From assembly GCA_910576655.1 (NCBI GenBank), contig CAJTJC010000007.1, positions 17,363 through 81,362 of the forward strand: a stretch of DNA of 64,000 bases. Direction: 5' to 3'. The DNA is from an uncultured Christensenella sp. (GTDB lineage Bacteria > Bacillota > Clostridia > Christensenellales > Borkfalkiaceae). The translations under genes and the position numbers were made by a program. Of this stretch, positions 808-22,404 are shown piece after piece; positions within the stretch are counted from its first letter, which is position 1; each line of letters opens with the position of its first letter. The notes beneath the pieces are model-generated. The model was not told where the DNA came from, ran no database searches, and was given only the letters and a program-made list of their open reading frames with translations.

Positions 808-2166
808 TATTTTGGAAAGTATGTGGCGCGCAACGTATACGCCGCTTGCCGAAGCGTGCGAAAGCGAGTGTGTTACGCCGCTTCCGTCGCCGATTATATA
901 CAGCCCCTTGTGCTTGGCTTCGAGGTTTTCGTCCGTTTCCACTTCCATATTGTAGAACTTGACCTCTACGCCGTACAGTAGAGTTTCGTCGTTTGCCGTG
1001 CCCTTTGCAACCTTATCGAGCGCGTAAATCATTTCGATTATGCCGTCGAGAATACGCTTGGGCAGAATAAGACTCAAATCGCCGGGGGTAGCTTTAAGCG
1101 TGGGAACGACTAAGTTTTCCTCTATCCTCTTCTGCGTGCTGCGCCTGCCGCGCACCATATCGCCGAACCTCTGCACTATTACGCCACCGCCCAGCATATT
1201 GGAAAGACGGGCGATACTCTCGCCGTAGCCGTTGCTGTCCTTGAACGGCTCGGAAAAGTGCTTTGAAACGAGCAGGGCAAAGTTGGTGTTGTTAGTTTTC
1301 TTTTTCTCGTCCTCGAAGCTATGCCCGTTGACGGTGATTATGCCGTTCGTGTTCTCGTTTACGACTATTCCGTGCGGGTTCATACAGAACGTACGCACCC
1401 TGTCCTCGTACTTTTCGGTTGTGTAAACGATTTTGCTTTCGTAAAGCTCGTCGGTGATATGCTCGAACACCTCCGCGTTCAGCTCTACGCGCACGCCTAT
1501 ATCCACGCGGTTGGAATGTGTGGTAATGTCAAGATTTTTACATACCTTTTCCATCCACTTGCTGCCGCTTCTGCCCGCGGAAACGATGCAGTATTTACAG
1601 GTGTAGCTCTTGTCCGCGACCACCTCGAAGCCGTCCGCGGTCTTTTTAACGTCGTTTACGTGAGTGTTGAAATAGAAATCTATTTTGTCCTTCAACTCGT
1701 CGTATATGTTCGACAGCACGGTATAATTTATGTCCGTACCCAAATGGCGCACCTTTGCGTTTAAAAGGTTTAGCTTGTTCTGCGTGCAAATCTTGTGGAA
1801 GTCAGAGCCCGCCGTGGAATACAGCTTAGTCTGCGCGCCGCCGTGCGCCGCATTGATTGCGTCTACGTATTCCATAAGCGCAAGCGCGTTCGCCTTGCCG
1901 ACGTGCTCGTACAGGCTGCCGCCGAAGTCGTTGGTTATGTTGTATTTGCCGTCCGAAAACGCGCCCGCGCCGCCGAAGCCGGACATTATCGAACACGTTT
2001 TGCAGCTTATACAGGAAGTTATTTTATCCCCGTCAATGGGGCATTTGCGTTTGGAAAGCTCGTTTCCCTCTTCGAAAACGGCAACTTTAAGCCCGCTTGC
2101 GCGCAGCTCGTATGCCGAAAAGATACCTCCGGGGCCCGCCCCTATAATTATAACGTCGTATTTCAT
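805..2166 (-). CDS. FAD-dependent dehydrogenase (uncharacterised NAD(FAD)-utilising family, COG2509-like)
   Basis: N-terminal dinucleotide-binding motif MKYDVIIIGAGPGGIFSAYEL and C-terminal GLYIIGDGSG motif. Length is 453 aa. Its start overlaps the stop of the upstream gene by 4 nt. Confidence 0.75.
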   Translation of the reverse strand: MKYDVIIIGAGPGGIFSAYELRASGLKVAVFEEGNELSKRKCPIDGDKITSCISCKTCSIMSGFGGAGAFSDGKYNITNDFGGSLYEHVGKANALALMEYVDAINAAHGGAQTKLYSTAGSDFHKICTQNKLNLLNAKVRHLGTDINYTVLSNIYDELKDKIDFYFNTHVNDVKKTADGFEVVADKSYTCKYCIVSAGRSGSKWMEKVCKNLDITTHSNRVDIGVRVELNAEVFEHITDELYESKIVYTTEKYEDRVRTFCMNPHGIVVNENTNGIITVNGHSFEDEKKKTNNTNFALLVSKHFSEPFKDSNGYGESIARLSNMLGGGVIVQRFGDMVRGRRSTQKRIEENLVVPTLKATPGDLSLILPKRILDGIIEMIYALDKVAKGTANDETLLYGVEVKFYNMEVETDENLEAKHKGLYIIGDGSGVTHSLSHASASGVYVARHILSKI

Positions 2167-3272
2167 TTATGATTGACCAATCCTACTATTTTTTCAATTA
2201 CCTCGTCCACGTCGTCGCCGACCACGACCTCGGTATCGCACACCTCGCTGTTACGGTACTCGAAGTCGAGCGACATAATGCGCCTCGTCTTGTCGTCGAG
2301 GTCTATATCCGTGCTTATAATGCTCTTTATCGCGTCGGCACGCTCTCTTTTCGTAAACACGAGCATAGCCCGCTCGCGGTATAAATTTTTAAGCGTGATT
2401 GCTCCGCAAATATCTATGGGAATGACGGCAACCCCGCCCCTTTCGACTATGGGCGAAATTTCCTTTTCCGAGGTACCGAAATGGTATCCGCTGTAAACGG
2501 TGGTTTCGATATAGCTACCCGCCTTCATCTCGCGTATGAACTGCGCCTCGGAAATAAAGCGGTAAGCGTCAGGCGCCTCGTCGCTTCGGCGCGGACGGGT
2601 GGTTGAAGTGAGCGGCTTTTCGAAGCCGTCAAGCGCGGTAAGCCCGTTTGCGATTTCCGTCTTTGACGAGCCCGACGGACCCACAAGGCAAAGCACGCCG
2701 CCGTTGCCGAGCTTGGGAAACTTGTCGTAAAAGGAATTTCTCACCATCTCGCAAAAGTGCATAAAGTCGTCATAGCCGTTTACCGAAAGCAGCCCCGAAA
2801 GCCCCGTATTCCACGGCTTGCGGAAAAGCACGGGATACGCCGCGCGCGAGCTTGAAATGTTGTGCGCGCCGTCGTCAAGCATAATATCAAGCGAAATTAT
2901 ATCCTTGCGCGTGCCCAAAATTATATTTTCATGCGGAATTTCGGGGAAATCTTTAATAAGTCTTTCTGCCCTCGCGCTCATACAGCACGCGGGTACGGCG
3001 GTAATGAAAAACACGTCCGCAATTTCCGAAAGCTTTCTCACGAACTCCTGCGCGCCCTCGGTTATGGGCTGCGTGCGCACGAATTCGGGGTCGGAATACA
3101 GAGCTATGCGTTCCTCTACGTGTCTGCCGCTCCCGCCCCAGTGCTTTATGTCCTCAACCTTTAAAGGCTCCTCGTCGGGGTGACGCTTGTTGATAATCGA
3201 TACTGCGTACGAATTACATTCGTAAAGCGTGTCGTCCACGTCCAGACCGACACGTATTCTGTATTTTTTCAT
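2163..3272 (-). CDS. fusion protein: NT5C-type HAD 5'(3')-deoxyribonucleotidase domain plus guanylate-kinase-like domain
   Basis: N-terminal half has the HAD motif I VGLDVDDTLYE and later DIMLDDG. C-terminal half has LVGPSGSSKT (P-loop-like), TTRPRRSDE...YRFI and YHFGTS, as in guanylate kinases. I moved the start to the ATG at 3272 (MKKYRIRV), which is preceded by GGAGAGG. The listed 3380 start would overlap the promoter region. Confidence 0.8.
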   Translation of the reverse strand: MKKYRIRVGLDVDDTLYECNSYAVSIINKRHPDEEPLKVEDIKHWGGSGRHVEERIALYSDPEFVRTQPITEGAQEFVRKLSEIADVFFITAVPACCMSARAERLIKDFPEIPHENIILGTRKDIISLDIMLDDGAHNISSSRAAYPVLFRKPWNTGLSGLLSVNGYDDFMHFCEMVRNSFYDKFPKLGNGGVLCLVGPSGSSKTEIANGLTALDGFEKPLTSTTRPRRSDEAPDAYRFISEAQFIREMKAGSYIETTVYSGYHFGTSEKEISPIVERGGVAVIPIDICGAITLKNLYRERAMLVFTKRERADAIKSIISTDIDLDDKTRRIMSLDFEYRNSEVCDTEVVVGDDVDEVIEKIVGLVNHK

Positions 3273-3290
3273 ATATTTACCTCTCCGTAC

Positions 3291-3319
3291 ATTATAATGT
3301 AAAAGCCGCCAAAAGTCAA
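3291..3319 (-). promoter_or_regulatory. sigma-70/SigA-type promoter for the nucleotidase-GK / FAD-dehydrogenase operon
   Basis: Read on the minus strand: TTGACT (3319-3314), 17 nt spacer, TATAAT (3296-3291), about 20 nt before the ATG at 3272. Confidence 0.75.
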
Positions 3320-3335
3320 GCCCCAAATTCGGCAG

Positions 3336-3364
3336 TTGACAAATGCGTTTCCTTATGATATACT
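3336..3364 (+). promoter_or_regulatory. sigma-70/SigA-type promoter for the DHH-DHH-surE operon
   Basis: TTGACA (3336-3341), 17 nt spacer, TGaTATACT extended -10 (3356-3364). The AAGGAG RBS and the ATG at 3395 follow. Confidence 0.75.
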
Positions 3365-3394
3365 GTTTTGTTAATTGCAATAAGGAGTAAAAAG

Positions 3395-6033: not shown

Positions 6034-6044
6034 CCGACAACAAA

Positions 6045-6077
6045 AAACAGCCTTCCCTTTCGGGAAGGTTGTTTTTA
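6045..6077. terminator. bidirectional rho-independent terminator between convergent operons
   Basis: Core stem ccttccc / gggaagg (6051-6057 / 6062-6068) with loop tttc, extendable outward, between an A-run and a T-run. Confidence 0.8.
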
Positions 6078-6084
6078 TTATAAT

Positions 6085-7629
6085 TTAATTAGCAGGATTT
6101 ACGTCTATTGACATAAGTCTAATCTGATTAATAGATGCAACGAACTCTATTGATGTTACAGCCGTAGCAAATTCAACAATTACGTCGTTGCCAGAAACAG
6201 TAACTGTAGCGCCGCTGATATTTGCAGCCTTAATAGCTTCTTCAAGATTTTTGGGATAATCGTTTTTAGCCTCTGTGCCGAACGCTTCAGCGCTATGGAA
6301 AACAATTTTTGTTATTCCTGCAAATTCAACCTTTATGGAAGAATTTTTATAGCAACGAACGGGGTCAGTATATTGCGTATTTACATTACTTGTACTACTA
6401 CCTTTCGAGTTCGTAAACGTAACTCCGTTATCTACCCAAACCTGCTCCTCTGTCGTAGCTACGGTACGCTTTGAGGTATCATTAAATGCAAGTGACCCGC
6501 TTGCACCAGGAACCACTGTAGCAGCGGCCTTAATTGTGATGGTTACGTCCTTGGTCGAGGTTGCCGAGCCGCAGGTTGCTGTAACGGTAACGACAACGGT
6601 TTTATCCTCGGTGGGAAGAGCCGCAACGTTCACTTTATCATCTGCAACCGTAGCTGCATCGCCCGATTTAAGAGCCCAAGCAAAAGTAACTGCTTCTTCG
6701 TCTGATAAGGGAAGAGCGGTTTCACCAACTCTGTTAATAGTCATATTCGCATTAACAGCTTCGAGTGCATCGGCTATCTTCTGGTCATCGGTTCTCTTAT
6801 CTTCAGCTTTTTCCAAAGCGTGACACTGAATACCCGTGCTGCCCTTATAGGTAACCTCAGGCTGAGGGTCGCCGGTTGCGCCTGCCTTAAGGTAATTCAT
6901 AAGGAAACCGCTTACGGTGATAAGGTCGCCTTTGCCTAAATCGCTATAGCTTTTAAGAATTTCGCCGTAATTGATACTGAGTATCATTATTGCGTCTTCG
7001 CTGTTCTTGTCTTTATCTTCAGCGTAGGTGTCCGCAATATAAACAAATCCTACTCTGGTGCCGCTATCTCTACCGCAGTCAACAACGTATCCCTTTACGT
7101 ATACAAGGGGAATTTCGTCGGTCTCTGCATACTTCTCGGCAATTTCCAACTTAGAAGCAAGCTCTTTCGCGTAAGAAGCCGAGTACGGGTCTTCAAGAGT
7201 GCCTTGGCTTTCTTTGCTTTTTGCGGTTACGGCTCTTTCATATTCGGCAGTGGCAGTTTCTTTGCCGACCGTAACGGAAGCTTTAAGCTTATATTCTATA
7301 GCCGTTTCTGCTTTCGTAACGCTTACAGTGTACTCTTTTTTGTCGTTCATTTCTGCGCTTACCTTAACGTAATCGTTGAGGTTATTGAAAGTAGCAGAGC
7401 TTACAGACCAATTTACGTTATACAGCTCGCCGTCAACTTTCGTCTGACCCAAAACGGTGTAATCGTTATCAATGGTCTTTTTGCCTTCGTACAACGAATT
7501 GATAGAGGCTATTGCCTTTTTTGCCACCTCCGCATCATTGCTTTCGCTTTCGCCGCCACAAGCAGCAAGCGAGCCTGCGCAGGTTACGCCCATTGTTAAT
7601 ACAAGAGCAGCACTGAGTAATTTTTTCAT
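6085..7629 (-). CDS. surface lipoprotein with OB-fold-like module, function unknown (candidate nucleic-acid-binding protein)
   Basis: Signal peptide plus lipobox LAAC-GG. A central segment (VYVKGYVVD...VGFVYIAD...GDLITVSGFL) resembles the OB-fold segments of the neighbouring thermonuclease. AAGGAGAA RBS. It is the last gene before the terminator. Confidence 0.6.
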   Translation of the reverse strand: MKKLLSAALVLTMGVTCAGSLAACGGESESNDAEVAKKAIASINSLYEGKKTIDNDYTVLGQTKVDGELYNVNWSVSSATFNNLNDYVKVSAEMNDKKEYTVSVTKAETAIEYKLKASVTVGKETATAEYERAVTAKSKESQGTLEDPYSASYAKELASKLEIAEKYAETDEIPLVYVKGYVVDCGRDSGTRVGFVYIADTYAEDKDKNSEDAIMILSINYGEILKSYSDLGKGDLITVSGFLMNYLKAGATGDPQPEVTYKGSTGIQCHALEKAEDKRTDDQKIADALEAVNANMTINRVGETALPLSDEEAVTFAWALKSGDAATVADDKVNVAALPTEDKTVVVTVTATCGSATSTKDVTITIKAAATVVPGASGSLAFNDTSKRTVATTEEQVWVDNGVTFTNSKGSSTSNVNTQYTDPVRCYKNSSIKVEFAGITKIVFHSAEAFGTEAKNDYPKNLEEAIKAANISGATVTVSGNDVIVEFATAVTSIEFVASINQIRLMSIDVNPAN

Positions 7630-7673: not shown

Positions 7674-9035
7674 TTACGCTACTACCGTTATATAATCGGC
7701 ACGGTAACATTTAACCTGATATTCGCCGTTGAACTTTTCAATAAGCCCCTTGACGGTTATAGTTTTATTCAGGTATCTGTCTGCGGTAACAAGCTGACCG
7801 TTTTCGTCTTTAAGAACTTCGGTGCGAACCGTTATAGTCGTTCCGTCGGCAGCTTTACAAGTTATCGACATTGCGCCGTCACTCTGCCCGCCGTTGCTGG
7901 TAGTATAAATTTTAGTAACCGTCATGTTCGAAAGGGTTACGGTAGTACTCATTATAGCTTCACCGTAATTGATATTGACGGTTTCTTCCTCTTCGCCTTC
8001 TTCAAATCTGACGGCAAGTTTACCCGAAACGATATCCTTTGCGTCGGTTTCAACGAACGCCGCACTCTTATCCGTACTTATTACGTTCGAGTTCAAAGGG
8101 TCGTTAGGGTCGAATCCGTTGTAAGATACGCCTGAAATCTGGTAGGTTCCTTGGAATTCGGAAACGGTTCCGACTACGCTTACTTCGTTTCCTACAGTCA
8201 ATACCTCGAGTATTTTACCGCTTGTAAAGCCGTAATAAACCGCAAAGCCGAAATATACGCCCGTATCGGGGTCAAATTCCTCGATATAAACCGAGTTGCT
8301 GAATTCGGTAGTAACCACACCGGTAACCTTAACCTTCTTATTAGCGTAATCGGTCACGTGGCAGCGAAGCTCTTTCAGCGTTACCGGAATTGCCGTGCCG
8401 TAAAAGAAATCGGGGTCGTCCTCGTCAGAGAACACGAACAACTTCTTTGCTTTAGCCTGCGAAAGGGCGTTGCTGGCAATGGTGCCGTAGCGGTTACCCG
8501 CAGTGTTCGAACCTATTGCAAGACCTTCCTGCAAAATTTCCACGTTCAAATTTCTGTAATCGGTTGCGCCTGCGGGCTTATACCAAACCCAAAGCATATA
8601 CCTTTCACCTGTAGAGTCCACGTTCCAGCTACCGTCGTCCGATTCTACGATAATAGATTGGGCTGTTGCAAGCTTATTGTGAGTAAAGTCCGAAGCTTTT
8701 TTGCCCCACGGCTCGATTTTCCCGGTAGATTCGGGCGTATTTATAGCAAGGTATCTTGCTTTGATATATCCCTGCGTCTTTTCGAAATCAGACGGGTCGT
8801 AGCCGGTAATCGTTGAACTTTTAGGGTCGAAGTGCGTCGTGTCGCCGTCGATATAAAGGCGGACGTCCACTTCCTGCTTTTTGGTTTCACTCGTTAAATC
8901 AAGCTTAAGCTCGCTTACATAGTCGACGAATTCCGGCTCTTTAGACTCAGGGTCTTCACATGCTGCACAAAAAACGGGTATCGCTATCAGCGCAGCGCTG
9001 AGCGCCGAAATAAATATTTTAAAGCCTTTTCTCAT
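7674..9035 (-). CDS. secreted/lipoprotein thermonuclease (staphylococcal nuclease family) with C-terminal OB-fold domains
   Basis: SNase motifs YIDGDTTHF, ARYLAINTPES, WGKKASDFT, GERYMLWVWY and NVEILQEGLA. These are followed by two OB-like segments (VKVTGVVTTEF...VSVVGTVSEFQGTYQI and ITVKGLIEKFNGEYQV). There is an N-terminal signal peptide with Cys residues. Confidence 0.85.
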   Translation of the reverse strand: MRKGFKIFISALSAALIAIPVFCAACEDPESKEPEFVDYVSELKLDLTSETKKQEVDVRLYIDGDTTHFDPKSSTITGYDPSDFEKTQGYIKARYLAINTPESTGKIEPWGKKASDFTHNKLATAQSIIVESDDGSWNVDSTGERYMLWVWYKPAGATDYRNLNVEILQEGLAIGSNTAGNRYGTIASNALSQAKAKKLFVFSDEDDPDFFYGTAIPVTLKELRCHVTDYANKKVKVTGVVTTEFSNSVYIEEFDPDTGVYFGFAVYYGFTSGKILEVLTVGNEVSVVGTVSEFQGTYQISGVSYNGFDPNDPLNSNVISTDKSAAFVETDAKDIVSGKLAVRFEEGEEEETVNINYGEAIMSTTVTLSNMTVTKIYTTSNGGQSDGAMSITCKAADGTTITVRTEVLKDENGQLVTADRYLNKTITVKGLIEKFNGEYQVKCYRADYITVVA

Positions 9036-9038: not shown

Positions 9039-10451
9039 TTAACCTGCAAAATATTCACATTCCTCGATAGCAGCTTTGAAGGTTTCGTTCAAATCTTTGC
9101 CTACGAATACCGCCTGCATCAAAGCGCCGACTTCGTCACGCGCCTTTGAAGAACCTACGAATGCGGGTGAAGTATAATACGCAGCTTCCTGCTCCATGCA
9201 TACCTTAGCCGCAAGATAAGTTACGTTTCCGAAACCGTTAGCTTCCGCCAGATATTTCTTATAAATTTCGTTTTCCAGTACCGTAGTTACTACGGGAACG
9301 TAACCGGACGCATCCGAGAACTGTGCCTGGAAATCGACGTTCGTAGTAAGATATTTGACAAGCAGCCAGCTTGCAAGTACTTCCTGCGGGTTGTTCTTTT
9401 TGAAAATACAAACCGAAGGGCCCTGCGAAATTACCTTGGGTTTAGCGGGGTTGACCTGAGGAATGGACGTGATACCTATTTCGAAAGGATATTCACCGTC
9501 AACTCTGTCGGGAGACTGGTTCTTTGCACCCGCGGACGAGCCTATGCTCATATAGCTTGCCTGTACCTTGAACAGGTTGGAGGTATATTTGTTGTCGTTA
9601 AGGCCCTGAGTGGTGAAATAGCCTTTATCATACCAACCCTTAAACCTCTGAACGAATTCGCGGTTTTCTTCGTTATCGAAAAGATATTTGTTACCCGTCG
9701 CCGAGGTATAGGGCGAACCGAGCTGTTCACACATCGTAATAAACCAGTTTGCTTCCGAGTCGTAGCCGAGAGGCGTTGACTGAGGCGCAATCTCTTTAAT
9801 CTTTTTGCAGGTTTCCTCCATTTCATCCCACGTCGTGGGCACTTTCAAATTGTTAGTCTCAAAGAAGGTCTTATTGTAATACAAAACCTCGGTTGATTTG
9901 GAGAAAGGCATAGTGTACATAGTGCTACCGTCGCCGAATTTGAAGCCTTCGTCATAGTAACCCTTGATAAATGCGTTCGTCTCCTCCTCGGTCAAGCAAA
10001 GCGATTCGGTAGTTCCATCCTTGCGGGTTACTTTCATATCGTTGTACCCGCTGTCCTTAAGGAAATCGTTGAGGGGCTGAACCGCACCCGACTGATTGAA
10101 AAGCGCAACGTGGTCAGGATAGCAATAAGCAAGGTTAGGCTCGTCACCGGAAATAATTTCTTTCGTTATCTGGTCGCGCACGTCGTCGTAACCGCCGATA
10201 GCCTCTTCCTTTACGGTTATATTGGGATAAACTTCCTTAAATTTGTCCAAATGTCTTTGGAGGATAGGTCTGTTATTCTGACCCATAGTGTGGTAAAACG
10301 TAATAGTCACCGGAGTTTCGGTATCGAAACCGCCGTCAGGCATTACGAATTCCGCTTTCTTAGGGCCGCATCCCGTTGAGAACGCTAAGCCCGCCGTCAC
10401 CGTGCAAGCCATAATGCTTGCCATAATAACTGCGCCAAATTTTTTCTTCAT
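9039..10451 (-). CDS. ABC transporter substrate-binding lipoprotein, family 1 (CUT1 / sugar-type)
   Basis: Lipobox FSTGC. Size is about 470 aa and the composition is that of MalE/UgpB-type binding proteins. It sits directly downstream of two MalF/MalG-type permeases. Confidence 0.8.
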   Translation of the reverse strand: MKKKFGAVIMASIMACTVTAGLAFSTGCGPKKAEFVMPDGGFDTETPVTITFYHTMGQNNRPILQRHLDKFKEVYPNITVKEEAIGGYDDVRDQITKEIISGDEPNLAYCYPDHVALFNQSGAVQPLNDFLKDSGYNDMKVTRKDGTTESLCLTEEETNAFIKGYYDEGFKFGDGSTMYTMPFSKSTEVLYYNKTFFETNNLKVPTTWDEMEETCKKIKEIAPQSTPLGYDSEANWFITMCEQLGSPYTSATGNKYLFDNEENREFVQRFKGWYDKGYFTTQGLNDNKYTSNLFKVQASYMSIGSSAGAKNQSPDRVDGEYPFEIGITSIPQVNPAKPKVISQGPSVCIFKKNNPQEVLASWLLVKYLTTNVDFQAQFSDASGYVPVVTTVLENEIYKKYLAEANGFGNVTYLAAKVCMEQEAAYYTSPAFVGSSKARDEVGALMQAVFVGKDLNETFKAAIEECEYFAG

Positions 10452-10495
10452 TCTGCTTCTCCTTATAATTTATAGTTTATATAAACTTTTAATTT

Positions 10496-11473
10496 TTAAC
10501 CTTTGATACCGCTTCTCGATACGCCTTTCATAATGTACTTACGGAAGAATATGAATACGAGTAAAAGCGGAATCGTTACAAGTACTACCGCTGCCATCTG
10601 CGCGGGATAGTTTATCGCCCCTTCGACTCCCTCTAAGCCCTCGACAGGCCAACTCGCTTGTCGTAGTCCGAGAGTAATCAGCTTATGCGCCGCATCGTTG
10701 GCGACAAGGCGAGGCCAAACGTACGAGTTCCACGCTCCCATCATTTTTAGAATGGTTATCGATATAAGCGTGGGCGCCGCAAGCGGGACCATTACTTTCC
10801 AAAGATACTTTAAATCGCTCGTTCCATCCACCTTCGCTGCAAGATAAAGCTCGTTCGGTATCTGCATAAAGTTCTGCCGCAGCAGATAAATGTAGAATAT
10901 ACTGACGAGGAAGGGTACGATTAGAACGGTGAAAGTATTTTTCCAGCCGAAATTCGATACGGTTACGAAGTTGGTAATCGTGAACAGCTCGCCGGGAATC
11001 ATCATCGTAGCCATCATTGCTGCAAACAGCGCGTTTTTGCCCTTAAATTCAAGGCGGGCAAACGCGTACGCCGAAAGCACGGTAACTACCAATGAAAGTA
11101 TCGTAGAAACTATACCTACAATGCAAGTATTTAAAAACAGTCTACCGAGATTAAGCTCGCCCGTAAACGCCGTTGCATAGTTCGACCACTCAAATTGTCT
11201 GGGCCACAGCGTGGGCACCGTTTCACTGTATTCTGCATAGGTTTTCAGCGAGGAAATAAGCATCCAATAGAAAGGAAACAGTACTGCCAACGCCATTATG
11301 CCGAGGAACAGATACAAACCCGTCTGAACTGCAATTTTCATTGCAATCTGTTTTTTTGAAACGGCGTTCATATCCTTCTTTTTCATTACGTAGGATTCAG
11401 CGGATTTTACCGCTTCGGTTGCAGGTTGTTCGGGGGTAACTTTTTCGTCAATATCGTTAATATTATCCGTCAT
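10496..11473 (-). CDS. ABC transporter permease (MalG-like, CUT1)
   Basis: Six predicted hydrophobic helices. It has the EAA-loop region AAKVDGTSDLKYLWKVMVPLAAP and an AGGTGA RBS. Confidence 0.9.
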   Translation of the reverse strand: MTDNINDIDEKVTPEQPATEAVKSAESYVMKKKDMNAVSKKQIAMKIAVQTGLYLFLGIMALAVLFPFYWMLISSLKTYAEYSETVPTLWPRQFEWSNYATAFTGELNLGRLFLNTCIVGIVSTILSLVVTVLSAYAFARLEFKGKNALFAAMMATMMIPGELFTITNFVTVSNFGWKNTFTVLIVPFLVSIFYIYLLRQNFMQIPNELYLAAKVDGTSDLKYLWKVMVPLAAPTLISITILKMMGAWNSYVWPRLVANDAAHKLITLGLRQASWPVEGLEGVEGAINYPAQMAAVVLVTIPLLLVFIFFRKYIMKGVSRSGIKG

Positions 11474-11483
11474 AAATCACCTC

Positions 11484-12416
11484 TTAATAATGTACCTTTT
11501 TCTTACTTACGTACATATTTACCATCGTTACGGCAAATATGATTGCAAAAAGAATTAACGCAGCCGCGCTTGCACGCCCCTGATTGTTATCCAAGCTTTG
11601 ATAGATATAACCGACCATAGTATTCAATACGTTTTTAGAACCTATGGGTCCCATATTTTCGCCGAATATACCGACAATACTCGTATATTCCTTGAAACCG
11701 CCTATGAAGCTTGTAATTACTACGTAAGCTATCATCGGTGAAAGAAGGGGTACGGTTATACGCCAGAAAGTACGGATACGCGAGGTACCGTCAACTTTCG
11801 CAGCTTCGTAATACTGTTTGTTTACGCTTTGAAGTCCACCCAAAAGCACGAGAATTTTAAAAGGCAACGCATTCCAAACGATGTAAATAATCAGCACTGC
11901 CATATTCGCCGCTTTGGACGAGTTGGGGTTAACCCAGTTTATCCTCGTACCGCCGAACGCCTCGATAATGGTGTTTATAATACCTATCGAGCCCTCCTGT
12001 CCCGCATAGCCCTTGACCATACTGAACATAGCCATGAAAACCATACCGATTGCAATCGAGTTGGTAACGTATGGAAGGAAGAAAATAGTCTGCATGGTTC
12101 TTCTGATAAACTTTATCGAGTTGAGCGCAACAGCTATAATCAGCGCAAGCATCGTGGAAATGGGCACCGTTACCAGACAGAGAATCATCGTATTGCCGAG
12201 GCAGTTAACAAAGCCGCGGTATTTTGTTACGTTTACAAAGTTGTCGAAACCAAATTCGAATTTCTGACCGCCGATTAAACCAAGCTCGTTATAGTCTTTC
12301 AGAAAAGCCATTCTGAGCGTGTTGATTATTGGCCACACCGTAAATATCGCAAGAATAATCAATGCGGGCAAAAGATACAGCCAGGCTTTCCACTGGTTCT
12401 TCTTTTTACTATCCAT
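11484..12416 (-). CDS. ABC transporter permease (MalF-like, CUT1)
   Basis: EAA loop EAAKVDGTSRIRTFWRITVPLLSP and multiple hydrophobic helices. Confidence 0.9.
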   Translation of the reverse strand: MDSKKKNQWKAWLYLLPALIILAIFTVWPIINTLRMAFLKDYNELGLIGGQKFEFGFDNFVNVTKYRGFVNCLGNTMILCLVTVPISTMLALIIAVALNSIKFIRRTMQTIFFLPYVTNSIAIGMVFMAMFSMVKGYAGQEGSIGIINTIIEAFGGTRINWVNPNSSKAANMAVLIIYIVWNALPFKILVLLGGLQSVNKQYYEAAKVDGTSRIRTFWRITVPLLSPMIAYVVITSFIGGFKEYTSIVGIFGENMGPIGSKNVLNTMVGYIYQSLDNNQGRASAAALILFAIIFAVTMVNMYVSKKKVHY

Positions 12417-12421
12417 AACGA

Positions 12422-14155
12422 TTAACCCTCGCTATCGTTTTTCGTCGCTGTCGACGATTTTTTAGTCGCAGGCTTCTTTGCCGTTGCGGGTTTAGCCGCA
12501 GTTGATTTCGTTGCAGAAGCCTTTGCCGTTGCGGGTTTAGCCGCGGTCGTCTTCGTTGCGGACGTCTTTGCCGTTGCGGGTTTAGCCGCGGTCGTCTTCG
12601 TTGCGGACGTCTTTGTCGTTGCGGGTTTAGCCGCGGTCGTCTTCGTTGCGGACGTCTTTGTCGTTGCAGGCTTTTTAACGGGAGCTTCCTTTACTTCTTC
12701 GGCAACCGCTTCAACCTTTTCTTCGGCAACGGGCTCCGCCTTAATCTCCTCGACCTTTACCTCTTCGGTCACCGCCTCTTCTGCGATAGGCGCGGCAATT
12801 TCCGCAGGGGCTTCGACGGGCACGACGGGTTCTTGCAGAACCTCTGCGGACTCCGATTTCGGCTCTTCCTTCTTTTTGGAGAACAGACTCTTGACAGAGC
12901 TGACGCCCTTGGCAAACAGACTCTGCTTTATTACGGGCGCAGTCTTTTCCTTCAATTTGTCATCCGCTTCGCGGGGCAAAGGACCGTCGTGTGCAACGAA
13001 AACGTGACCTTCTGCCGCCATTTCGGCAACCATTGCCTCGTGTGCGGCAAGCTGCTCACCGAAGTAAACGCGCTCTTCCGATTCTTTATTGAAAATGAAT
13101 ACTTTATGTTGTTTTAAATTGAATTTTACTTCCGTGCCTGCAATATTGCCCATTTCGTCTGCGGAAATTATCGAACGGACTACGGGATTTAAAGAGCATT
13201 CGCTTGTAGAAACCACGGACACGTCTCTGCCCATCACGTCCACGCCCGAAACCGAGCAAGTCAGCTTGCCCTTTTTATCGAGAATAAATCCTTCGGGACG
13301 GACACCGACGTAAACTTCCTGATTTTCTACCCCCTTAACGTCCAGAACCTGCTCGTTTCCGATATAGAGCTTGCCGCCTTCGATTTTTCCGGAGAAGACG
13401 TTGATAGGGGGCGCGCCGAGGAATTTTGCGACGAACAAATTTGCAGGGTCGTCGTAAACCCACTGGGGCTTACCCGTCTGCATTACTACGCCCAGTTTCA
13501 TAACGACTATGTAATCGGAAATAGACATTGCCTCTTCCTGGTCGTGCGTTACGAATATAGTCGTAATTTTCGTGCTTCTCTGAATTCTTCTTATTTCTTC
13601 GCGGGTCTGCAATCTTAATCTTGCGTCAAGATTAGAAAGAGGCTCGTCAAGAAGAAGGACGCGCGGCATTTTTACAAGTGCGCGAGCGATTGCGACGCGC
13701 TGCTGTTGTCCGCCCGAAAGCTCGGACGGTTTACGGTTCATATACTCGTCAATCTGAACAAGTTTAGCAACCTCGGTGGCACGTGTCAGCATCTCCTCCT
13801 TTGAGAGCCTGTTTTCACCTTTTAAATTTTGTAAAGGGAATAAAATATTCTGTTGAACCGTCATGTGCGGATAGAGCGCATAGTTCTGGAAAACCAGACC
13901 TATACCCCTGTTTTCAGGTGAAAGCTTGGTTACTTCGTCTTCGCCGAAGAAAATTTTACCGCTCGTCGGCGCCTGCAAACCGCTTATCATATAAAGCGTG
14001 GTACTTTTTCCGCAGCCCGACGGACCTAAAAGACCGATAAGCTTGCCGTCGGGGATTTCAAGATTAAAATCGTTTACGGCGATAACTTCGGCATTTTTAT
14101 CCTTCTTGTTACGGCTTGGAAAGATTTTTGTAAGGTTTTGTAATACAACTTTCAT
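12422..14155 (-). CDS. ABC transporter ATP-binding protein (MalK/MsmX-like) with a roughly 200 aa low-complexity C-terminal tail
   Basis: Walker A GPSGCGKST, signature LSGGQQQR, Walker B LLLDEP and a MalK-type regulatory domain to about aa 375. After that come an acidic Pro/Glu/Val/Ala-rich stretch and KPAT(T/A)KTSATKTTAA repeats. Confidence 0.9.
   Translation of the reverse strand: MKVVLQNLTKIFPSRNKKDKNAEVIAVNDFNLEIPDGKLIGLLGPSGCGKSTTLYMISGLQAPTSGKIFFGEDEVTKLSPENRGIGLVFQNYALYPHMTVQQNILFPLQNLKGENRLSKEEMLTRATEVAKLVQIDEYMNRKPSELSGGQQQRVAIARALVKMPRVLLLDEPLSNLDARLRLQTREEIRRIQRSTKITTIFVTHDQEEAMSISDYIVVMKLGVVMQTGKPQWVYDDPANLFVAKFLGAPPINVFSGKIEGGKLYIGNEQVLDVKGVENQEVYVGVRPEGFILDKKGKLTCSVSGVDVMGRDVSVVSTSECSLNPVVRSIISADEMGNIAGTEVKFNLKQHKVFIFNKESEERVYFGEQLAAHEAMVAEMAAEGHVFVAHDGPLPREADDKLKEKTAPVIKQSLFAKGVSSVKSLFSKKKEEPKSESAEVLQEPVVPVEAPAEIAAPIAEEAVTEEVKVEEIKAEPVAEEKVEAVAEEVKEAPVKKPATTKTSATKTTAAKPATTKTSATKTTAAKPATAKTSATKTTAAKPATAKASATKSTAAKPATAKKPATKKSSTATKNDSEG
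12481..12672 (-). repeat. in-frame 45 bp tandem repeat (4 full copies plus partial copies) inside the ATPase tail
   Basis: Copies lie at 12481-12525, 12526-12570, 12571-12615 and 12616-12660. Copies 2 and 3 are identical and copy 4 differs by 1 nt. Each copy encodes a 15 aa KPATxKTSATKTTAA unit. Confidence 0.95.
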
Positions 14156-14185: not shown

Positions 14186-15040
14186 TTATTGATTTTTTGA
14201 ATTTTCTACGGTCTGCTTATGCTGAAGCGTCTTTCTTTCAAGCATTTCTTCTTCGGACTGAAAAATCATTTGCAGCTTCATATCAACTGCCACCGTATAC
14301 GCGATTATATCGTGAATAGGCGTTTTATTTTTCGTAACGAAAAATAAAACCGTATTCATAATTAATATCGCCGCAAGCAAGACTAACGCCAGTATACCGA
14401 GCCCCCCGAATATGAACAGGAATACAAGCAGTACGGGGAACATGGTTTCAATTGCGAATTTACCTAGAAAAGCTCTTGCAAACAGAGACAAAGTAGATAT
14501 TTTAACGCAGTCGGCACGAACTATACATATTCCGAATACTTTTTTGCCCACCGTCTGTCCGTTTTTTAAAAACAACGGCACTACAAATTCAAGTATGGCG
14601 TATGCAAGGAAAATCCCGAGAGAAACCATCATAAACAGTAAGCTGTAAACGTACTTGTACTGCGCGTTGACCTTTTCCACGGGCGTAAGCGATTTGAACT
14701 TAGCGTATGCCGCCGCAGTTTCGGGGTGTTCGCCGTTCGAAGCGTCAAGCTTTTCCATCACCGCCCCGAGCGACGATTCTATGCCGTCTTTTTTAATGAC
14801 GTACCCGTCCTCTTTTTCTTCGTAAGTAAAGCCGTAATAATCAGCAACGCCGCCGACGTACTCTTTTCGGAAATCTTCCCATTCCTCAAAGTATTGACCC
14901 GATAATTTTTCTTCGTGACTGTAATTGCATATAAGCGAAATAATGAACATAAACCCGGTAGTTAAAACTGCAAGAAGAATAACGTCGAGCAGAAGGGCTG
15001 AAGCCCTTTTAACTATACCGATTTTCCTTAGTTCAAACAT
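14186..15040 (-). CDS. RDD-family integral membrane protein
   Basis: N-terminus KRASALLLDVILLAV and the later NGQTVGKKVFGICIV are characteristic of RDD domains, and there are several TM helices. The start was moved to the ATG at 15040 (GGAGTGA RBS), because the listed ATG at 15097 lies inside the predicted -10 box. Confidence 0.7.
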   Translation of the reverse strand: MFELRKIGIVKRASALLLDVILLAVLTTGFMFIISLICNYSHEEKLSGQYFEEWEDFRKEYVGGVADYYGFTYEEKEDGYVIKKDGIESSLGAVMEKLDASNGEHPETAAAYAKFKSLTPVEKVNAQYKYVYSLLFMMVSLGIFLAYAILEFVVPLFLKNGQTVGKKVFGICIVRADCVKISTLSLFARAFLGKFAIETMFPVLLVFLFIFGGLGILALVLLAAILIMNTVLFFVTKNKTPIHDIIAYTVAVDMKLQMIFQSEEEMLERKTLQHKQTVENSKNQ

Positions 15041-15095: not shown

Positions 15096-15124
15096 ATTAT
15101 AACTTATTTAAATTAATAAATCAA
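15096..15124 (-). promoter_or_regulatory. internal sigma-70/SigA-type promoter ahead of the RDD/ABC/nuclease genes
   Basis: Read on the minus strand: TTGATT (15124-15119), 17 nt spacer, TATAAT (15101-15096). Confidence 0.65.
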
Positions 15125-17951: not shown

Positions 17952-18563
17952 TTATGAAAGCTTATGATTTATACATCCGATTATTACGTCCAGCGCGACG
18001 GCGTTATGCCCGCCCTCGGGGACGATTATGTCCGCACGGCGTTTGTACGGTTCTACAAACTGCTCGTGCATGGGTTTTACCGTCGACTGATACTGATTGA
18101 CGACCGAGTCGAGACTTCTGCCCCTCTCGTTGACGTCCCTCATTATACGGCGCAGGATACGAACGTCCGCGTCCGTGTCGACGTAAATTTTTATATCGAA
18201 AAGGTTACAAAGCTTTGCGTTTTCAAACAACAGTATTCCCTCTACTATAATTATACGGTTGCTTTCGACGCGGGTTGTTTCTTCCTTTCGTAAATGATTT
18301 CTGTAATCGTACTGCGGCACCTCTACCGCGTTTCCCTTTTTAAGCTCTTTAATGTGCCTGATAAACAGGTCGGTTTCAAAGGCGTCGGGGTGGTCGTAGT
18401 TGCACTTCGCCCTTTCCTCGAACGGTATCGACGCGTCGCTTTTATAGTAGCTGTCCATGCCGAGCAGGGTCGAGCAGGAAGCGAATTCGTCGTAAATTTT
18501 TTCGGCAAGCGTCGTTTTACCGCTACCCGTTCCGCCGCAAATGCCTATAACCACTCTGTTCAT
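17952..18563 (-). CDS. udk: uridine kinase
   Basis: P-loop [13 protein letters not shown], plus [13 protein letters not shown] and IIIVEGIL, typical of Udk. Confidence 0.9.
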
Positions 18564-19144
18564 TACGAACGCTCCTTCGCCAGCCGTTCAAGCCAGCACT
18601 TCCTGCACATCGCCACGTAGCGGTCGTTTCCGCCTATACAGACCTGCGACCCCTCGGTAACCACTCTGCCGCGTCCGTCCAGCCGCGCGTTGACGGTAGC
18701 CTTAGCGCCGCAGGTGCAGACCGACTTTATTTCGGTTATAGACTGAGCTATTTCGAAAAGCCGCTTACTGCCGGGGAAAAGATGTGTGGTAAAATCGGTA
18801 CTAAGCCCGAAGCAAAGCACGGGAACGTCCTTCTTTATCACTATATCGGCAAGTTGGTCCACCTGCTCGGGGGTGAGAAACTGGCACTCGTCCACGATTA
18901 TCACGTTACAGTCGGGAAACTCGTTAACGTACTTGTCGTAGACGTTTTCGCTCTCTTTTACGGTCACCGCCTCGTTTTGCAGACCTATGCGCGATTTTAC
19001 TGTATCCGCGCCGTCGCGGTCGTCGATTGCGGGCTTCAAGAGCAGCACCTTCATATTGCGCTCTTCGTAATTGAATTTGGTTATCAGCGCCTGCGCCGTT
19101 TTCGAGCAGCCCATTGCCCCGAACTTGAAGTATAACTTTGCCAT
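18563..19144 (-). CDS. tdk: thymidine kinase
   Basis: GAMGCSKT P-loop, [10 protein letters not shown], and the C-terminal Cys cluster CTCGAKA...CRKCW typical of type II thymidine kinases. Confidence 0.9.
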
Positions 19145-19181
19145 ATAACCCTTTAACCTACGTATATTAATTTTCGTCTGT

Positions 19182-20483
19182 TTACTCGACTATGCAGTAA
19201 ACGAGAGGCTCTTCGGCGGGTTTGTCTTTGCAGACCTCTGTTGCGGAAAGCAAAATTTCTTCCGCCCTTGCGAACGATTGCTTATTGCACGAGTACAGCG
19301 TTGCTATTTCCTCGCCCGCCTTTACGAAGTCGCCCGTCTTGCGCTTCAAAATAATGCCGGCGCTGTAATCTATTTCGTCCTCTACGGTGTTGCGGCCCGC
19401 GCCGAGCGCGAGCGAAGCAAGCCCGTACGCCTCGGTATCGACCGCGCCGATATATCCGTCCCTGACGCTTTTGACCGCATGCGAATATTTTGCCTTTGCG
19501 AAAGTTGCGGGGTTTTCGATAAGCTTTTTATTGCCGCCCTGCGCCCCTACCGTTTCGATAAGCTTTTTAAGCGCGCTGCCGTCGGCGATAGCCTTTTCCG
19601 CCATTGCCCTGCACTCTTCCGCGCTGCCCTTACCCGCAAGCGAAAGCATATACGCCGCAAGCGTCAGGCACACCTCGGTAAAGTCCGCGGGTCCCTTGCC
19701 TTGCAAGGTTTCAACCGCCTCGATAACTTCCAGCGAGTTGCCTATCGCGCGACCGAGCGGTCTGTCCATATTCGTTATAAGCGCGACCATTTTCTTGCCT
19801 GCGCTCTTGCCTATGTCGACCATTAATTTGGCAAGCGCCTTGCTGTCCTCTACCGTCTTCATAAACGAGCCGCTGCCCGTCTTTACGTCCAAAACGATGC
19901 AGTCGTCGTCCGCGGCAAGCTTTTTGCCCATTATGCTTGCGGCGATAAGAGGCATACTGTCTACCGTTGCCGTAACGTCGCGCAGAGCGTAAAGCTTTTT
20001 ATCTGCAGGAGCGAACTGCCGCGACTGCCCGACGATTGCAAAGCCTATGTCGTTGACCTGCTTCATAAAATCGGCGTCTGACAGAGTAGTCTGAAAGCCA
20101 TCGATAGCTTCGAGCTTGTCGATGGTTCCGCCCGTGTGCCCCAAGCCCCTGCCGCTCATTTTGGCGACCTTTACGCCGAGCGAGGCGACTATGGGCGCGA
20201 CTACGAGGCTGGTCTTATCCCCGACGCCGCCCGTCGAATGTTTGTCTACGCGTATTCCGTTGATTTCCGAAAAGTCGAGCCTGTCGCCCGAATCGCGGAC
20301 GGCAAAGGTCAAATCGCAGGTTTCCCTGCTCGTCATTCCCTTGAAATAAATCGCCATGCAAAGCGCGGAAATCTGATAGTCGGGAATAGAGCCGTCCGTA
20401 ACCCCCTTTACGAAATAGTTGATTTCTTCGGTGGACAGCTCGCCTCCGTCGCGTTTCTTTTTGATAACGTCGTACATTCTCAT
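19182..20483 (-). CDS. pdp: pyrimidine-nucleoside phosphorylase
   Basis: MRMYDVIKKKRDGGELS, DKHSTGGVGDK and SGRGLGHTGGTIDKLE are typical. The start was moved to the ATG at 20483, which removes the overlap with the upstream gene. Confidence 0.9.
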   Translation of the reverse strand: MRMYDVIKKKRDGGELSTEEINYFVKGVTDGSIPDYQISALCMAIYFKGMTSRETCDLTFAVRDSGDRLDFSEINGIRVDKHSTGGVGDKTSLVVAPIVASLGVKVAKMSGRGLGHTGGTIDKLEAIDGFQTTLSDADFMKQVNDIGFAIVGQSRQFAPADKKLYALRDVTATVDSMPLIAASIMGKKLAADDDCIVLDVKTGSGSFMKTVEDSKALAKLMVDIGKSAGKKMVALITNMDRPLGRAIGNSLEVIEAVETLQGKGPADFTEVCLTLAAYMLSLAGKGSAEECRAMAEKAIADGSALKKLIETVGAQGGNKKLIENPATFAKAKYSHAVKSVRDGYIGAVDTEAYGLASLALGAGRNTVEDEIDYSAGIILKRKTGDFVKAGEEIATLYSCNKQSFARAEEILLSATEVCKDKPAEEPLVYCIVE

Positions 20484-20502
20484 ATTTAATATTCCCCTTT
20501 TT

Positions 20503-21996
20503 TTAATGTTTCCAGCCGCCGCCGGCAACGAAGTCCGCAAGCAAATCCCTCGCGTACTTTTCGCCGCCCAGCCGCGCGACCTCGGTTATACGGTTGTATC
20601 TGTACGTGGACGAATAGCTGTCCACGATAATGTAATAATAGCTATCGTCCGAAATTTCGGACGCCTTTAACGCAGTAAAGCAATAATAGTTGTCCGCGCC
20701 CGACAAAAACCGCGACTTTAAGTCCGAGCCCTTGATTTTGCCGAGAACGATATCGTTATCGAACGGCAGAACGGAGAACAGCTGCGCGTAGGTAACGCTG
20801 CCCGCTTCTATTCTGTAAGGGCTGCGCAGCTTCAAATACCCGCCGCCGAGCGCGATTTTATATTCGCCGCCCCACTGTTTTACGCCCGTTTCGTAATAAA
20901 GTTTTGCAAGCAATGTGCAAACCTCTGTCGAATTGCGTCGCGCGGAGTTGGTCCCGAGCACGGTCGTGTAAGGATTGTCGGTCGGAAAATATTTATCGAA
21001 CAGCTCGCCCACTACGGGGTCGCTTGCGCCGCTCGCGTAAACGCTGCTGCTTATAAGCCTTGGCTTAACGGTGAATTCCCTCGTCGCCCTGTTCAGCGAA
21101 ACCTCGGCAGAGCTTACGAAGCTGTTTTCGCCGCCGCCCTGCAAATGGTAAACGCCGTGTTCGTCCTTTAAAATATAGCGCTGGTGAGTGTGTCCCTCGA
21201 AAACCAAATCGACGTAGCCGTCGGACAGCGAAACGTCGTAATAGCTTGAAATTTCGCGCGAGGAAACCTCGTTAACGCTCGAAGCGGAAAAGCTTTCGCC
21301 GTATCCGTCGTGAATGGAATATACTATAAATTCGCAGCCTTCCGCCCTCAGCTTTTTCGACTCCGCCTTGACAAGCGAGGTCAGCGCGCCGCCCGTCGCA
21401 AATTGCAGTCCTGCGGTGAAATCGCCCGAAATCGAGCCGAGGCAGTCGCCTATCGCGCCGATTATACCGATTTTTACACCGCCCCTTTCCACTACGGTGG
21501 AAGCGCGGCAGTAATCCGCGGGCTTGCCGTTTTGGGTTACGTTGATTGCGAGGAACGGAAATTCCGCCAGCTCGCTGTTGGGCTTTAACACCTGCGAGCC
21601 CCAGTCGTACTCGTGATTGCCGAGCGTCATCGCCGCAAAGTCGAGCTCGTTCATCCATTCGGTGAGAAGCCGCCCCTTGTTGGTGGAGGATTCCACGGTG
21701 CCCTGCCAGGTATCGCCCGAAGAGAGCAAAATTTCTTCGCGGGCGGGGTCGGCGTACAGCGCCTTCATATAGGCGGTAAATTCGTCCAAACCGGGCTGAA
21801 CGTCGGTGTCGATATACTTGCCGTGCAGGTCGTTTATCGCATAAAAAGACAGTTCTACCGTCATCCTTTCGCCGCAGCCGTCGCAAAGCCCGTTGCCGTC
21901 GGCGTCCGCGTGTTTATGTACTTCCGCTCCGCAGCCCGCCGCACATAGCGCAACCGCCGCGGCACAGACCGTCGAAAGCCTTAAAAGCTTACCCAT
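20503..21996 (-). CDS. lipoprotein metallophosphatase / 5'-nucleotidase family (UshA/CpdB-like)
   Basis: Lipobox CAAGC. Calcineurin-type motifs NDLHG, SGDTWQG, LGNHEYDWG and EGHTH, with a nucleotidase-like C-terminal half. Confidence 0.8.
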   Translation of the reverse strand: MGKLLRLSTVCAAAVALCAAGCGAEVHKHADADGNGLCDGCGERMTVELSFYAINDLHGKYIDTDVQPGLDEFTAYMKALYADPAREEILLSSGDTWQGTVESSTNKGRLLTEWMNELDFAAMTLGNHEYDWGSQVLKPNSELAEFPFLAINVTQNGKPADYCRASTVVERGGVKIGIIGAIGDCLGSISGDFTAGLQFATGGALTSLVKAESKKLRAEGCEFIVYSIHDGYGESFSASSVNEVSSREISSYYDVSLSDGYVDLVFEGHTHQRYILKDEHGVYHLQGGGENSFVSSAEVSLNRATREFTVKPRLISSSVYASGASDPVVGELFDKYFPTDNPYTTVLGTNSARRNSTEVCTLLAKLYYETGVKQWGGEYKIALGGGYLKLRSPYRIEAGSVTYAQLFSVLPFDNDIVLGKIKGSDLKSRFLSGADNYYCFTALKASEISDDSYYYIIVDSYSSTYRYNRITEVARLGGEKYARDLLADFVAGGGWKH

Positions 21997-21999
21997 ATG

Positions 22000-22404
22000 T
22001 TATAAATCTTTATCAGTAAACGCGAAAGGCAACAGCTTATCGAGCGTGTACTCTTTAATAGAGTTTTCGTTGCCGAGGATAATTCTGAAATCTTTTCCGC
22101 AGAACTCGGCTATTACCTGCCTGCAAACGCCGCAGGGCGCGCAGAAGTCAGCCGTTTCGCCCTCTCTGCCGCCGATAATGGCAATCGCCTCGAATTCGCG
22201 CTCGCCCTCGGAAACGGCTTTAAAAATCGCGGTGCGCTCGGCACAGTTACCGGGCGTGAACGCCGCATTTTCTATATTGCAGCCGGTGTAAATCTTTCCA
22301 CTTTTGGTAAGCAGAGCCGCGCCCACGCAATAATGCGAGTACGGCGTATAGGCCGTTTGGCGCGCTTTCTGAGCCGCAGTCATCAATGCTTTGTTGTCAA
22401 TCAT
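22000..22404 (-). CDS. cdd: cytidine deaminase
   Basis: Zinc motifs CAERTAI and PCGVCRQV. Length is 134 aa. Confidence 0.9.
   Translation of the reverse strand: MIDNKALMTAAQKARQTAYTPYSHYCVGAALLTKSGKIYTGCNIENAAFTPGNCAERTAIFKAVSEGEREFEAIAIIGGREGETADFCAPCGVCRQVIAEFCGKDFRIILGNENSIKEYTLDKLLPFAFTDKDL

Follow-up and report, generated by a model that had tools for sequence, protein, structure and literature searches.

What does an ATP-binding cassette (ABC) importer carry when its genes lie among those of nucleases and of nucleoside catabolism? The question is raised by a locus of an uncultured Christensenella sp., situated in a stretch of 64,000 nucleotides (GenBank assembly GCA_910576655.1, contig CAJTJC010000007.1, positions 17,363 to 81,362 of the forward strand) that is called the window here. 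Window positions 9039-14155 encode a CUT1 ABC importer, which an original prediction from the sequence had put forward as a candidate new class of importer with nucleosides as its foremost cargo. Gene content, conserved linkage and pocket similarity incline us, with modest confidence, to the reading that the importer would take up phosphorylated products of nuclease action, which would be trimmed to nucleosides in the cytoplasm and then catabolized or salvaged.

The transporter core and its binding pocket

Four tightly spaced open reading frames (ORFs) fill the interval on the minus strand, and the binding lipoprotein among their products sets the cargo specificity:

12422..14155, minus strand: ABC ATPase, UgpC/MalK-like, 577 amino acids (aa) (ABC_tran E 2e-36)
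11484..12416, minus strand: permease, UgpA/MalF-like, 310 aa (BPD_transp_1 E 4e-20)
10496..11473, minus strand: permease, UgpE/MalG-like, 325 aa (BPD_transp_1 E 2e-17)
9039..10451, minus strand: family-1 substrate-binding lipoprotein, 470 aa (SBP_bac_8 and SBP_bac_1)

A family-1 binding protein, two MalF/MalG-type permeases and a MalK/UgpC-type ATPase assign the system to CUT1 (TC 3.A.1.1), and neither Pfam nor NCBIfam returned a Bmp-type binding protein or CUT2 hit for any of the four proteins. The original prediction had been right to separate the importer from the BmpA/CUT2 type, the matches being to SBP_bac_1 and SBP_bac_8, to BPD_transp_1 twice and to a UgpC-like ATPase, and it had correctly described both the MalF- and MalG-like permeases with their EAA loops (EAAKVDG, within YYEAAKVDG, and LAAKVDG, respectively) and the gene order with the ATPase first and the binding protein last. 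The binding lipoprotein exceeded the Pfam cutoffs for SBP_bac_8 (E 3e-36) and SBP_bac_1 (E 5e-25), and its Cys28 is invariant across the family. The full-length models ranking best for the two permeases were UgpA/MalF (UgpA model E 6e-24) and UgpE/MalG (UgpE model E 5e-30), with both Ugp models below cutoff. The ATPase was best matched in NCBIfam by UgpC over residues 17-363, followed by OB_MalK and CysA_C matches in the C-terminal domain that were both below cutoff, and it carries a C-terminal extension of ~200 aa (window 12422-13060) ending in a Lys/Ala/Thr-rich repeat, which corresponds to 4.3 copies of a 45-bp tandem repeat (12475-12667) and gave a weak histone-H1-like HC2 match. Ahead of this tail the extension contains a motif (...AHE.M.A.M.AEGQ.Y.TH.GPLPREADD...) that is kept in the nearest relatives; the tail itself varies greatly in length among relatives and is anything from acidic to similarly basic.

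The ranking of UgpC, UgpA, UgpE and UgpB as top or near-top NCBIfam models for the four proteins brings in one alternative, namely a Ugp-type importer of sn-glycerol-3-phosphate (G3P) or glycerophosphodiesters, with the nucleases serving general phosphate or phospholipid scavenging. None of the equivalog cutoffs was reached, however, the scores in bits against cutoff being 44/411 for UgpB, 85/335 for UgpA, 105/297 for UgpE and 342/432 for UgpC. Furthermore, no glycerophosphodiesterase (UgpQ/GlpQ) or glycerol-phosphate gene was present among the window ORFs scanned for domains (all except those at 62097-63260 and 63291-63989) or in the widely shared neighbour clusters that could be named, and the invariant partner gene is that of a nuclease.

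The binding protein was modelled with AlphaFold2 (AF2) from an alignment of homologues obtained by protein search, and the mean predicted local distance difference test score (pLDDT) of 90.8 makes it look like a reasonable candidate for expression. Its best match in the Protein Data Bank (PDB), both in sequence (phmmer E 9e-18; family profile E 8e-23) and in fold (Foldseek E 4e-24; TM 0.80 on target), was the Thermus thermophilus 7C0F series, which made up all of the top 25 fold hits and is titled as a dinucleotide-binding protein of an ABC transporter 'endogenously bound to uridylyl-3'-5'-phospho-guanosine' (UpG). To our knowledge this ligand was an endogenous one that co-purified with the protein, and we know of no demonstration of transport. 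The M. tuberculosis and E. coli UgpB proteins came next in the fold list as strong matches, in line with a Ugp-type importer, and many sugar-binding proteins followed further down. The latter, together with public records that name relatives 'extracellular solute-binding protein' or 'multiple sugar transport system', would suit an ordinary importer of oligosaccharides or pentoses (for example ribose- or deoxyribose-containing sugars) whose linkage to nucleases is coincidental or regulatory.

The residues that could discriminate between these pockets were taken as the positions named in the titles of the 7C0x mutant structures and were mapped by sequence alignments:

Thermus Y56: window Y88; E. 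coli UgpB Tyr
Thermus F79: window Y111; E. coli UgpB Tyr
Thermus N81: window D113; E. coli UgpB Val
Thermus S127: window S186; E. coli UgpB Ser
Thermus Y224: window Y289; E. coli UgpB gap or Glu (two alignments differ)
Thermus T240: window S305; E. coli UgpB Ser
Thermus Y246: window N311 (Tyr in most family members); E. coli UgpB Asn
Thermus Q274: window Q343; E. coli UgpB Gly

Four of the eight mutagenised residues are identical in the window protein, three are conservatively replaced and one (N311) is different, and most family members keep or conservatively replace all eight. With the exception of N311, the mapped window residues do not vary across the alignment of the Clostridia family and are also kept in the Bacilli relatives, whereas E. 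coli UgpB departs from the Thermus set at N81, Y224, Y246 and Q274. A Ugp-type cargo gains from the conservation of UgpB Y42, S121, S247 and R374 in the window protein, a Tyr, two Ser and an Arg that we take to contact G3P, with R374, which aligns with the family-invariant R438, presumably being the phosphate ligand. It loses from the replacement of the UgpB W169/W172 pair, presumably key G3P contacts according to the 4AQ4 work, by Ala and Phe in both the window family (A234/F237 in the window protein) and the Thermus protein, and of UgpB E66 by Pro (numbering checked against the E. coli sequence). The window family also has an insertion of ~40 residues relative to the Thermus protein (window residues ~130-175). 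This residue mapping therefore suggests a pocket of the phosphate-ester type, within the subgroup of UgpB and the dinucleotide-binding protein, which by alignment appears nearer to the dinucleotide binder than to UgpB at the discriminating positions. Taken together with the scores and gene content, this leaves a Ugp-type importer quite improbable.

Most of the conserved pocket residues (Y88, Y111, Y289, Q343, R438) are missing from three more distant relatives (P0243, P0249 and P0232; 34-37% identity), and the wider binding-protein family probably holds paralogues with other specificity. Many of the cluster representatives matching the binding protein are much longer predicted proteins with its domain in a C-terminal or internal position (for example P0131, 1087 aa; P0136, 1307 aa; P0148, 1318 aa; P0155, 1535 aa), which may represent either genuine fusions to permease or other module genes or read-through in gene calling.

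Conservation of the module in Clostridia and Bacilli

Relatives of the binding protein occur in at least 555 stretches of species-representative genomes, and in a search of the whole library 417 clusters at 50% identity matched it at E <= 1e-30. Synteny was counted in the best 80 loci (55-68% binding-protein identity), all of them from uncultured gut or rumen Clostridia (Oscillospiraceae, Faecousia, Acutalibacteraceae and similar), with neighbours identified by tblastn using the window proteins. Three further genes accompany the transport core in a larger module, and in the window they are:

14186..15040, minus strand: RDD-family membrane protein, first module gene (Pfam RDD E 4e-11)
7674..9035, minus strand: SNase-domain surface lipoprotein with a C-terminal region of ~250 aa (SNase E 1e-8)
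6085..7629, minus strand: Ig-like (beta-sandwich) lipoprotein, 514 aa, last module gene (AF2 pLDDT 86)

The SNase lipoprotein gene, which begins 3 nt downstream of the binding-protein gene in the window, directly followed the latter in all 80 Clostridia loci (SNase identity 39-62%), and a further lipoprotein gene came after it in at least 64. An RDD gene was situated upstream of the ATPase gene in 60/60 loci having at least 5 kb of upstream flank, and the order RDD, ATPase, permease, permease, binding protein, SNase was kept wherever the flank or contig reached.

The same order was found in six of six loci from metagenome-assembled genomes (MAGs) named 'Bacilli bacterium', whose proteins are related to one distant representative; three of their binding proteins (P0253, P0221, P0324) were also recovered in the search with the window query and are 37-43% identical to the window protein. 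These six contexts comprise one to three RDD copies, the ATPase, two permeases, one or (often) two tandem binding proteins, the SNase and a large lipoprotein, and frequently another SNase that bears a lamin-tail (LTD) domain. The RDD genes were located in L085 (2226-4776), L086 (825-2924), L087 (2891-5135) and L089 (4134-6497), and one locus additionally had a DHH gene and an Inositol_P-family phosphatase gene. In four of the six the module directly follows tuf, and where the flank reaches it comes after fusA and rpsG, a position that suggests high constitutive expression in these reduced-genome Bacilli MAGs (L085-L089).

Synteny in both sets of loci therefore defines a stable unit of RDD, ABC transporter, binding protein, SNase and lipoprotein, and the four genes of the window interval make up the transporter at the core of a conserved module that runs from the RDD gene through the ATPase, two permease, binding-protein and SNase lipoprotein genes to the Ig-like lipoprotein gene. 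Within it the RDD membrane protein may be an uncharacterised accessory subunit of the transporter. The adjacency of binding protein and SNase in every Clostridia and Bacilli-MAG locus counted shows that the link to nucleic-acid breakdown drawn by the original prediction is genuine. The persistence of this linkage down to roughly 37-43% binding-protein identity and across two bacterial classes also bears against the sugar importer introduced above, as does the absence of glycoside hydrolases, sugar kinases and isomerases from the scanned window ORFs (the original prediction had likewise noted no sugar kinase or glycosidase) and from the nameable, widely shared neighbour clusters; we give that explanation hardly any credence. 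A search of the literature for the module in gut Clostridia found no report.

Regarding the accessory proteins, the RDD gene probably starts at an ATG at 15040, as homologues begin MFELRK, although the ORF finder runs to 15097. Aligned to S. aureus nuclease, the SNase domain conserves R35, T41, E43 and R87, and D21 appears to lie in a 'DGDT' motif read from the sequence outside the alignment; for an OB fold in its C-terminal half only sub-threshold tRNA_anti-codon matches (E 0.003-0.09) were obtained. Among 12 aligned relatives of the 514-aa Ig-like lipoprotein, aBig_2 was found in 11 and a tRNA_anti-codon OB match in five, and Pfam offered no family clue beyond aBig_2 and these weak OB-fold hints; a PDB sequence search gave no hit and Foldseek gave generic multi-Ig matches (TM ~0.15).

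Nucleic-acid genes of the window and the nature of the cargo

The module is surrounded in the window by further genes of nucleic-acid metabolism:

3368-4333 and 4334-5311, plus strand: NrnA-like DHH/DHHA1 proteins, two in tandem (Pfam; NrnA model 254 and 239 bits, cutoff of 350 not reached)
5302-6033, plus strand: SurE, 5'/3'-nucleotidase (TIGR00087 171 bits, above the cutoff of 135)
2163..3380, minus strand: NT5C-type 5'(3')-deoxyribonucleotidase / guanylate-kinase-like fusion, cytoplasmic (NT5C E 1e-15, Guanylate_kin E 2e-16)
15772-17937, minus strand: secreted Endonuclease I with Big_2 domains (Endonuclease_1 E 9e-33, Big_2 E 7e-30)
15170-15766, minus strand: 198-aa lipoprotein without family match, between the Endonuclease I and RDD genes
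17952..24948, minus strand: nucleoside salvage and catabolism run (udk, tdk, pdp, cdd, deoB, deoD-type phosphorylase, deoC), co-directional with the module
20503-21996, minus strand: 5'-nucleotidase-like extracellular lipoprotein (Metallophos/5_nucleotid_C), within the nucleoside gene run

The setting among nucleases (SNase, Endonuclease I) and nucleoside genes (udk, tdk, pdp, cdd, deoB, deoD, deoC) is thus as the original prediction had described it. Linkage of these genes to the module varied among the 80 Clostridia loci. The NrnA-like pair was within ~8 kb in 36 and SurE in 33 of the 52 loci having at least 8 kb of flank, while tdk (15 loci), pdp (10), the 5'-nucleotidase-like gene (9), the 198-aa lipoprotein gene (9) and Endonuclease I (6) were linked in the nearest relatives only. 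Both NrnA-like proteins and SurE lack a signal peptide. The joining of a nucleotidase to a nucleotide kinase fold in one ORF, as in the NT5C fusion, is unusual.

SNase-type nucleases release 3'-phosphomononucleotides and 3'-phospho-oligonucleotides, NrnA is an oligonucleotidase and pAp phosphatase, and SurE is a 5'/3'-nucleotidase. In the scheme that we propose, the SNase lipoprotein, aided in the source genome by secreted Endonuclease I, would cut extracellular DNA or RNA to mono-, di- and short oligonucleotides, of which the phosphate-bearing fragments would be captured by the binding lipoprotein and imported by the two permeases and the UgpC-like ATPase. The cytoplasmic NrnA-like pair, SurE and the NT5C fusion would then reduce the fragments to nucleosides, to be burnt by Pdp, DeoD, Cdd, DeoB and DeoC or salvaged by Tdk and Udk. 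The RDD protein and the Ig-like lipoprotein would also have parts in this scheme.

The alternative closest to the original prediction is that free nucleosides or deoxynucleosides are the cargo, following full extracellular degradation by the nucleases and the 5'-nucleotidase-like lipoprotein. This would agree with the occurrence of that lipoprotein gene in the same run as udk, tdk, pdp, deoD and cdd, and with the fact that neither BmpA-type (Bmp-type binding protein) nor NupC-type transporters were seen among the scanned window ORFs. The 5'-nucleotidase-like gene, however, is linked in only 9 of the 80 loci, against 80/80 for the SNase gene and ~70% for the NrnA-like pair. In the nearest binding proteins of solved structure the ligand is in each case a phosphate ester (UpG, G3P or glycerophosphocholine), and the Arg at the position of UgpB R374 is invariant in the family. 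Moreover, the NrnA-like and SurE enzymes are suited to finishing imported (oligo)nucleotides, and such cytoplasmic oligonucleotidases and nucleotidases would have no obvious role beside the importer if nucleosides alone entered. We regard nucleosides as rather unlikely cargo for these reasons. Phosphorylated fragments are favoured because of the SNase partner, the UgpB/dinucleotide-type pocket with R438 and the cytoplasmic NrnA-like and SurE neighbours; hence the direction of nucleic-acid scavenging in the original prediction stands, and its placing of nucleosides first is probably wrong.

Several observations weigh against the import of phosphorylated fragments. The similarity of the binding protein to the dinucleotide-binding protein (hhalign probability 99.1, E 6e-19, 25% identity) is just marginally above that to E. 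coli UgpB (98.9, E 3e-17, 21% identity), and the Thermus locus consists of permease, permease and binding-protein genes flanked by unrelated genes, with no nuclease, RDD or ATPase gene. In the window SNase the metal ligand D40 is replaced by Asn. The 80 Clostridia genomes are related, so that their counts do not represent independent events. In addition to udk and tdk, the window cluster includes the gene of an extracellular 5'-nucleotidase-like lipoprotein, which agrees with removal of phosphate before entry and import of nucleosides. Finally, the cargo assigned to the window protein and its close relatives is a prediction from genes and sequence.

With respect to regulation, the following two features border the module:

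15096..15124, minus strand: promoter-like site TTGATT-17-TATAAT immediately 5' of the RDD gene (10/12 consensus matches)
6043..6076, no strand assigned: bidirectional terminator-like hairpin (stem of 15 pairs on the plus and of 7 pairs on the minus strand)

The first is a possible promoter of the module's own, as judged by consensus match, and a perfect -35/-10 promoter-like site at 25010-24982 precedes the whole minus-strand run from 24948 to 6085. The hairpin closes this run and, from the opposite side, the convergent genes of the NrnA-like pair and SurE. No riboswitch or other RNA regulator reached the Rfam gathering thresholds anywhere in the window.

The rest of the window encodes giant surface proteins, a subtilase with leucine-rich repeats (LRR) beside an Opp peptide importer, and enzymes of tricarboxylic acid cycle type. 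Directly upstream of the nucleoside cluster (25077-40483, minus strand) there are four very large ORFs (2059, 1462, 796 and 780 aa) with Flg_new or Big_3 repeats alone or with no domain, which are probably surface proteins. At 41060-56140 (minus strand) a 2513-aa subtilase (PA, Big_2, BspA-type LRR) adjoins a peptide ABC importer of the Opp type, which has a binding protein of unusual length (928 aa). This arrangement follows the same logic of surface hydrolase plus ABC importer, for protein. A defence system or mobile element was considered for the locus and dropped, since every gene carries a signature of metabolism or transport and the synteny is that of a chromosome.

Comparison with known systems

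The idea of a nuclease-linked CUT1-like operon is already known, having been proposed earlier for the matching operon of mycoplasmas, where it has long been suspected of nucleotide uptake. M. agalactiae co-transcribes the genes of P80 (a sugar-type binding protein according to modelling), of the SNase MAG_5040, of an ATPase and of two permeases, and import of nucleic-acid precursors was proposed (PMC3585158). MBOVPG45_0307-0311 of M. bovis is described as a putative nucleotide transporter operon, with deoC and pdp at loci 0300-0301 (PMC4045577), and the same source, citing PMID 23798535, gives MslA of M. gallisepticum, a P81 homologue, as binding single- and double-stranded DNA. SNase lipoproteins of such Mollicutes operons include mhp379, MAG_5040, MPN133 and MBOVPG45_0310 (PMC3585158, PMC4045577, PMC9740415), and the model of a nuclease-linked importer is repeated in reviews (PMC9740415, PMC12115388). 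Reports that mycoplasmas (M. mycoides) take up intact nucleotides date back to the 1980s, with the gene unassigned (PMC6609329). Since the P80/P81/MslA-SNase-ABC operons have already been called putative nucleotide transporters (PMC3585158, PMC4045577, PMC9740415), and since the PDB already contains a CUT1 binding protein with bound dinucleotide (7C0F series), the term 'new class' used in the original prediction does not hold.

The P80/P81/MslA operon resembles the module in bringing together a surface lipoprotein like the binding protein, an SNase lipoprotein, one ATPase and two 'oligosaccharide-type' permeases, and in M. bovis the likeness to the window extends to nearby deoC and pdp and to a long ATPase gene of 2103 bp (PMC3585158, PMC4045577, PMC9740415). 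The gene order differs, as the lipoprotein and nuclease genes come first in mycoplasmas, in contrast to RDD, ATPase, permeases, binding protein and SNase in the window. The hosts differ as well, the window coming from a lineage of gut Clostridia that is free-living and has complete nucleoside catabolism, in comparison to nucleotide-auxotroph mycoplasmas, and in the literature searched no mycoplasma description of RDD genes or of the Ig-like lipoprotein was found. The NCBIfam model lipo_P68 (Mycoplasma P68 surface lipoprotein) matched the window binding protein (E 2e-4) and a Bacilli-MAG relative encoded in such a module (E 5e-13), both far below its 200-bit cutoff. The similarity suggests that the binding-protein family may be homologous to the Mycoplasma P68 lipoproteins, which may or may not be the same family as P80/MslA. 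The cargo of the Mollicutes operons is putative, as is that of the window module.

What is new is the conservation and wide distribution of the module in gut Clostridia and Bacilli MAGs, well outside the Mollicutes, its inclusion of RDD and Ig-like lipoprotein genes with frequent NrnA-like and SurE linkage, and a pocket that, as far as can be aligned, appears to share the residue set of the sole solved dinucleotide-binding protein of this type. Confirmation of the cargo would establish the way in which many gut Firmicutes exploit extracellular DNA and RNA as food and would correct the 'sugar transporter' label on thousands of genes. A bolder extension, which we offer tentatively and with some doubt, is that the module is a dedicated importer of di- or oligonucleotides, possibly 3'-phosphorylated, with the RDD protein as accessory subunit, forming a 'nucleic-acid utilisation locus'. 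Were this true, abundant uncultured gut Clostridia and reduced-genome Bacilli would feed on extracellular DNA and RNA, and the same family would supply the Mollicutes nucleotide-uptake gene that was never assigned.

The Thermus 7C0F protein, reportedly studied by Chandravanshi, Samanta and Kanaujia (FEBS J 2021, PMID 33599038), is like the window binding protein in being its best sequence and fold match and in having its gene placed after the permease genes, and unlike it in sharing only ~25% identity and in lacking the ~40-residue insertion. Genes of a nuclease, an RDD protein and an ATPase are all missing beside the Thermus gene, so that orthology of the two systems does not apply and the resemblance is one of pocket type and not of system; a nuclease context for the Thermus protein was considered and was rejected on account of the unrelated flanking genes. 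UgpBAEC of E. coli and M. tuberculosis shares with the window the CUT1 architecture and the same binding-protein subgroup. It differs in the Ugp equivalog cutoffs, which the window proteins do not reach, in the Trp169/Trp172 pair, which they lack, and in the partner gene, a nuclease in the window instead of UgpQ/GlpQ, with ugpQ being included in the E. coli ugp locus. Lastly, the BmpA/CUT2 importers NupNOPQ and RnsBACD belong to unrelated families, with a Bmp-type binding protein, CUT2 permeases and a duplicated ATPase, none of which is in the window module, and a possible overlap with the module lies in the feeding of nucleoside salvage and catabolism.

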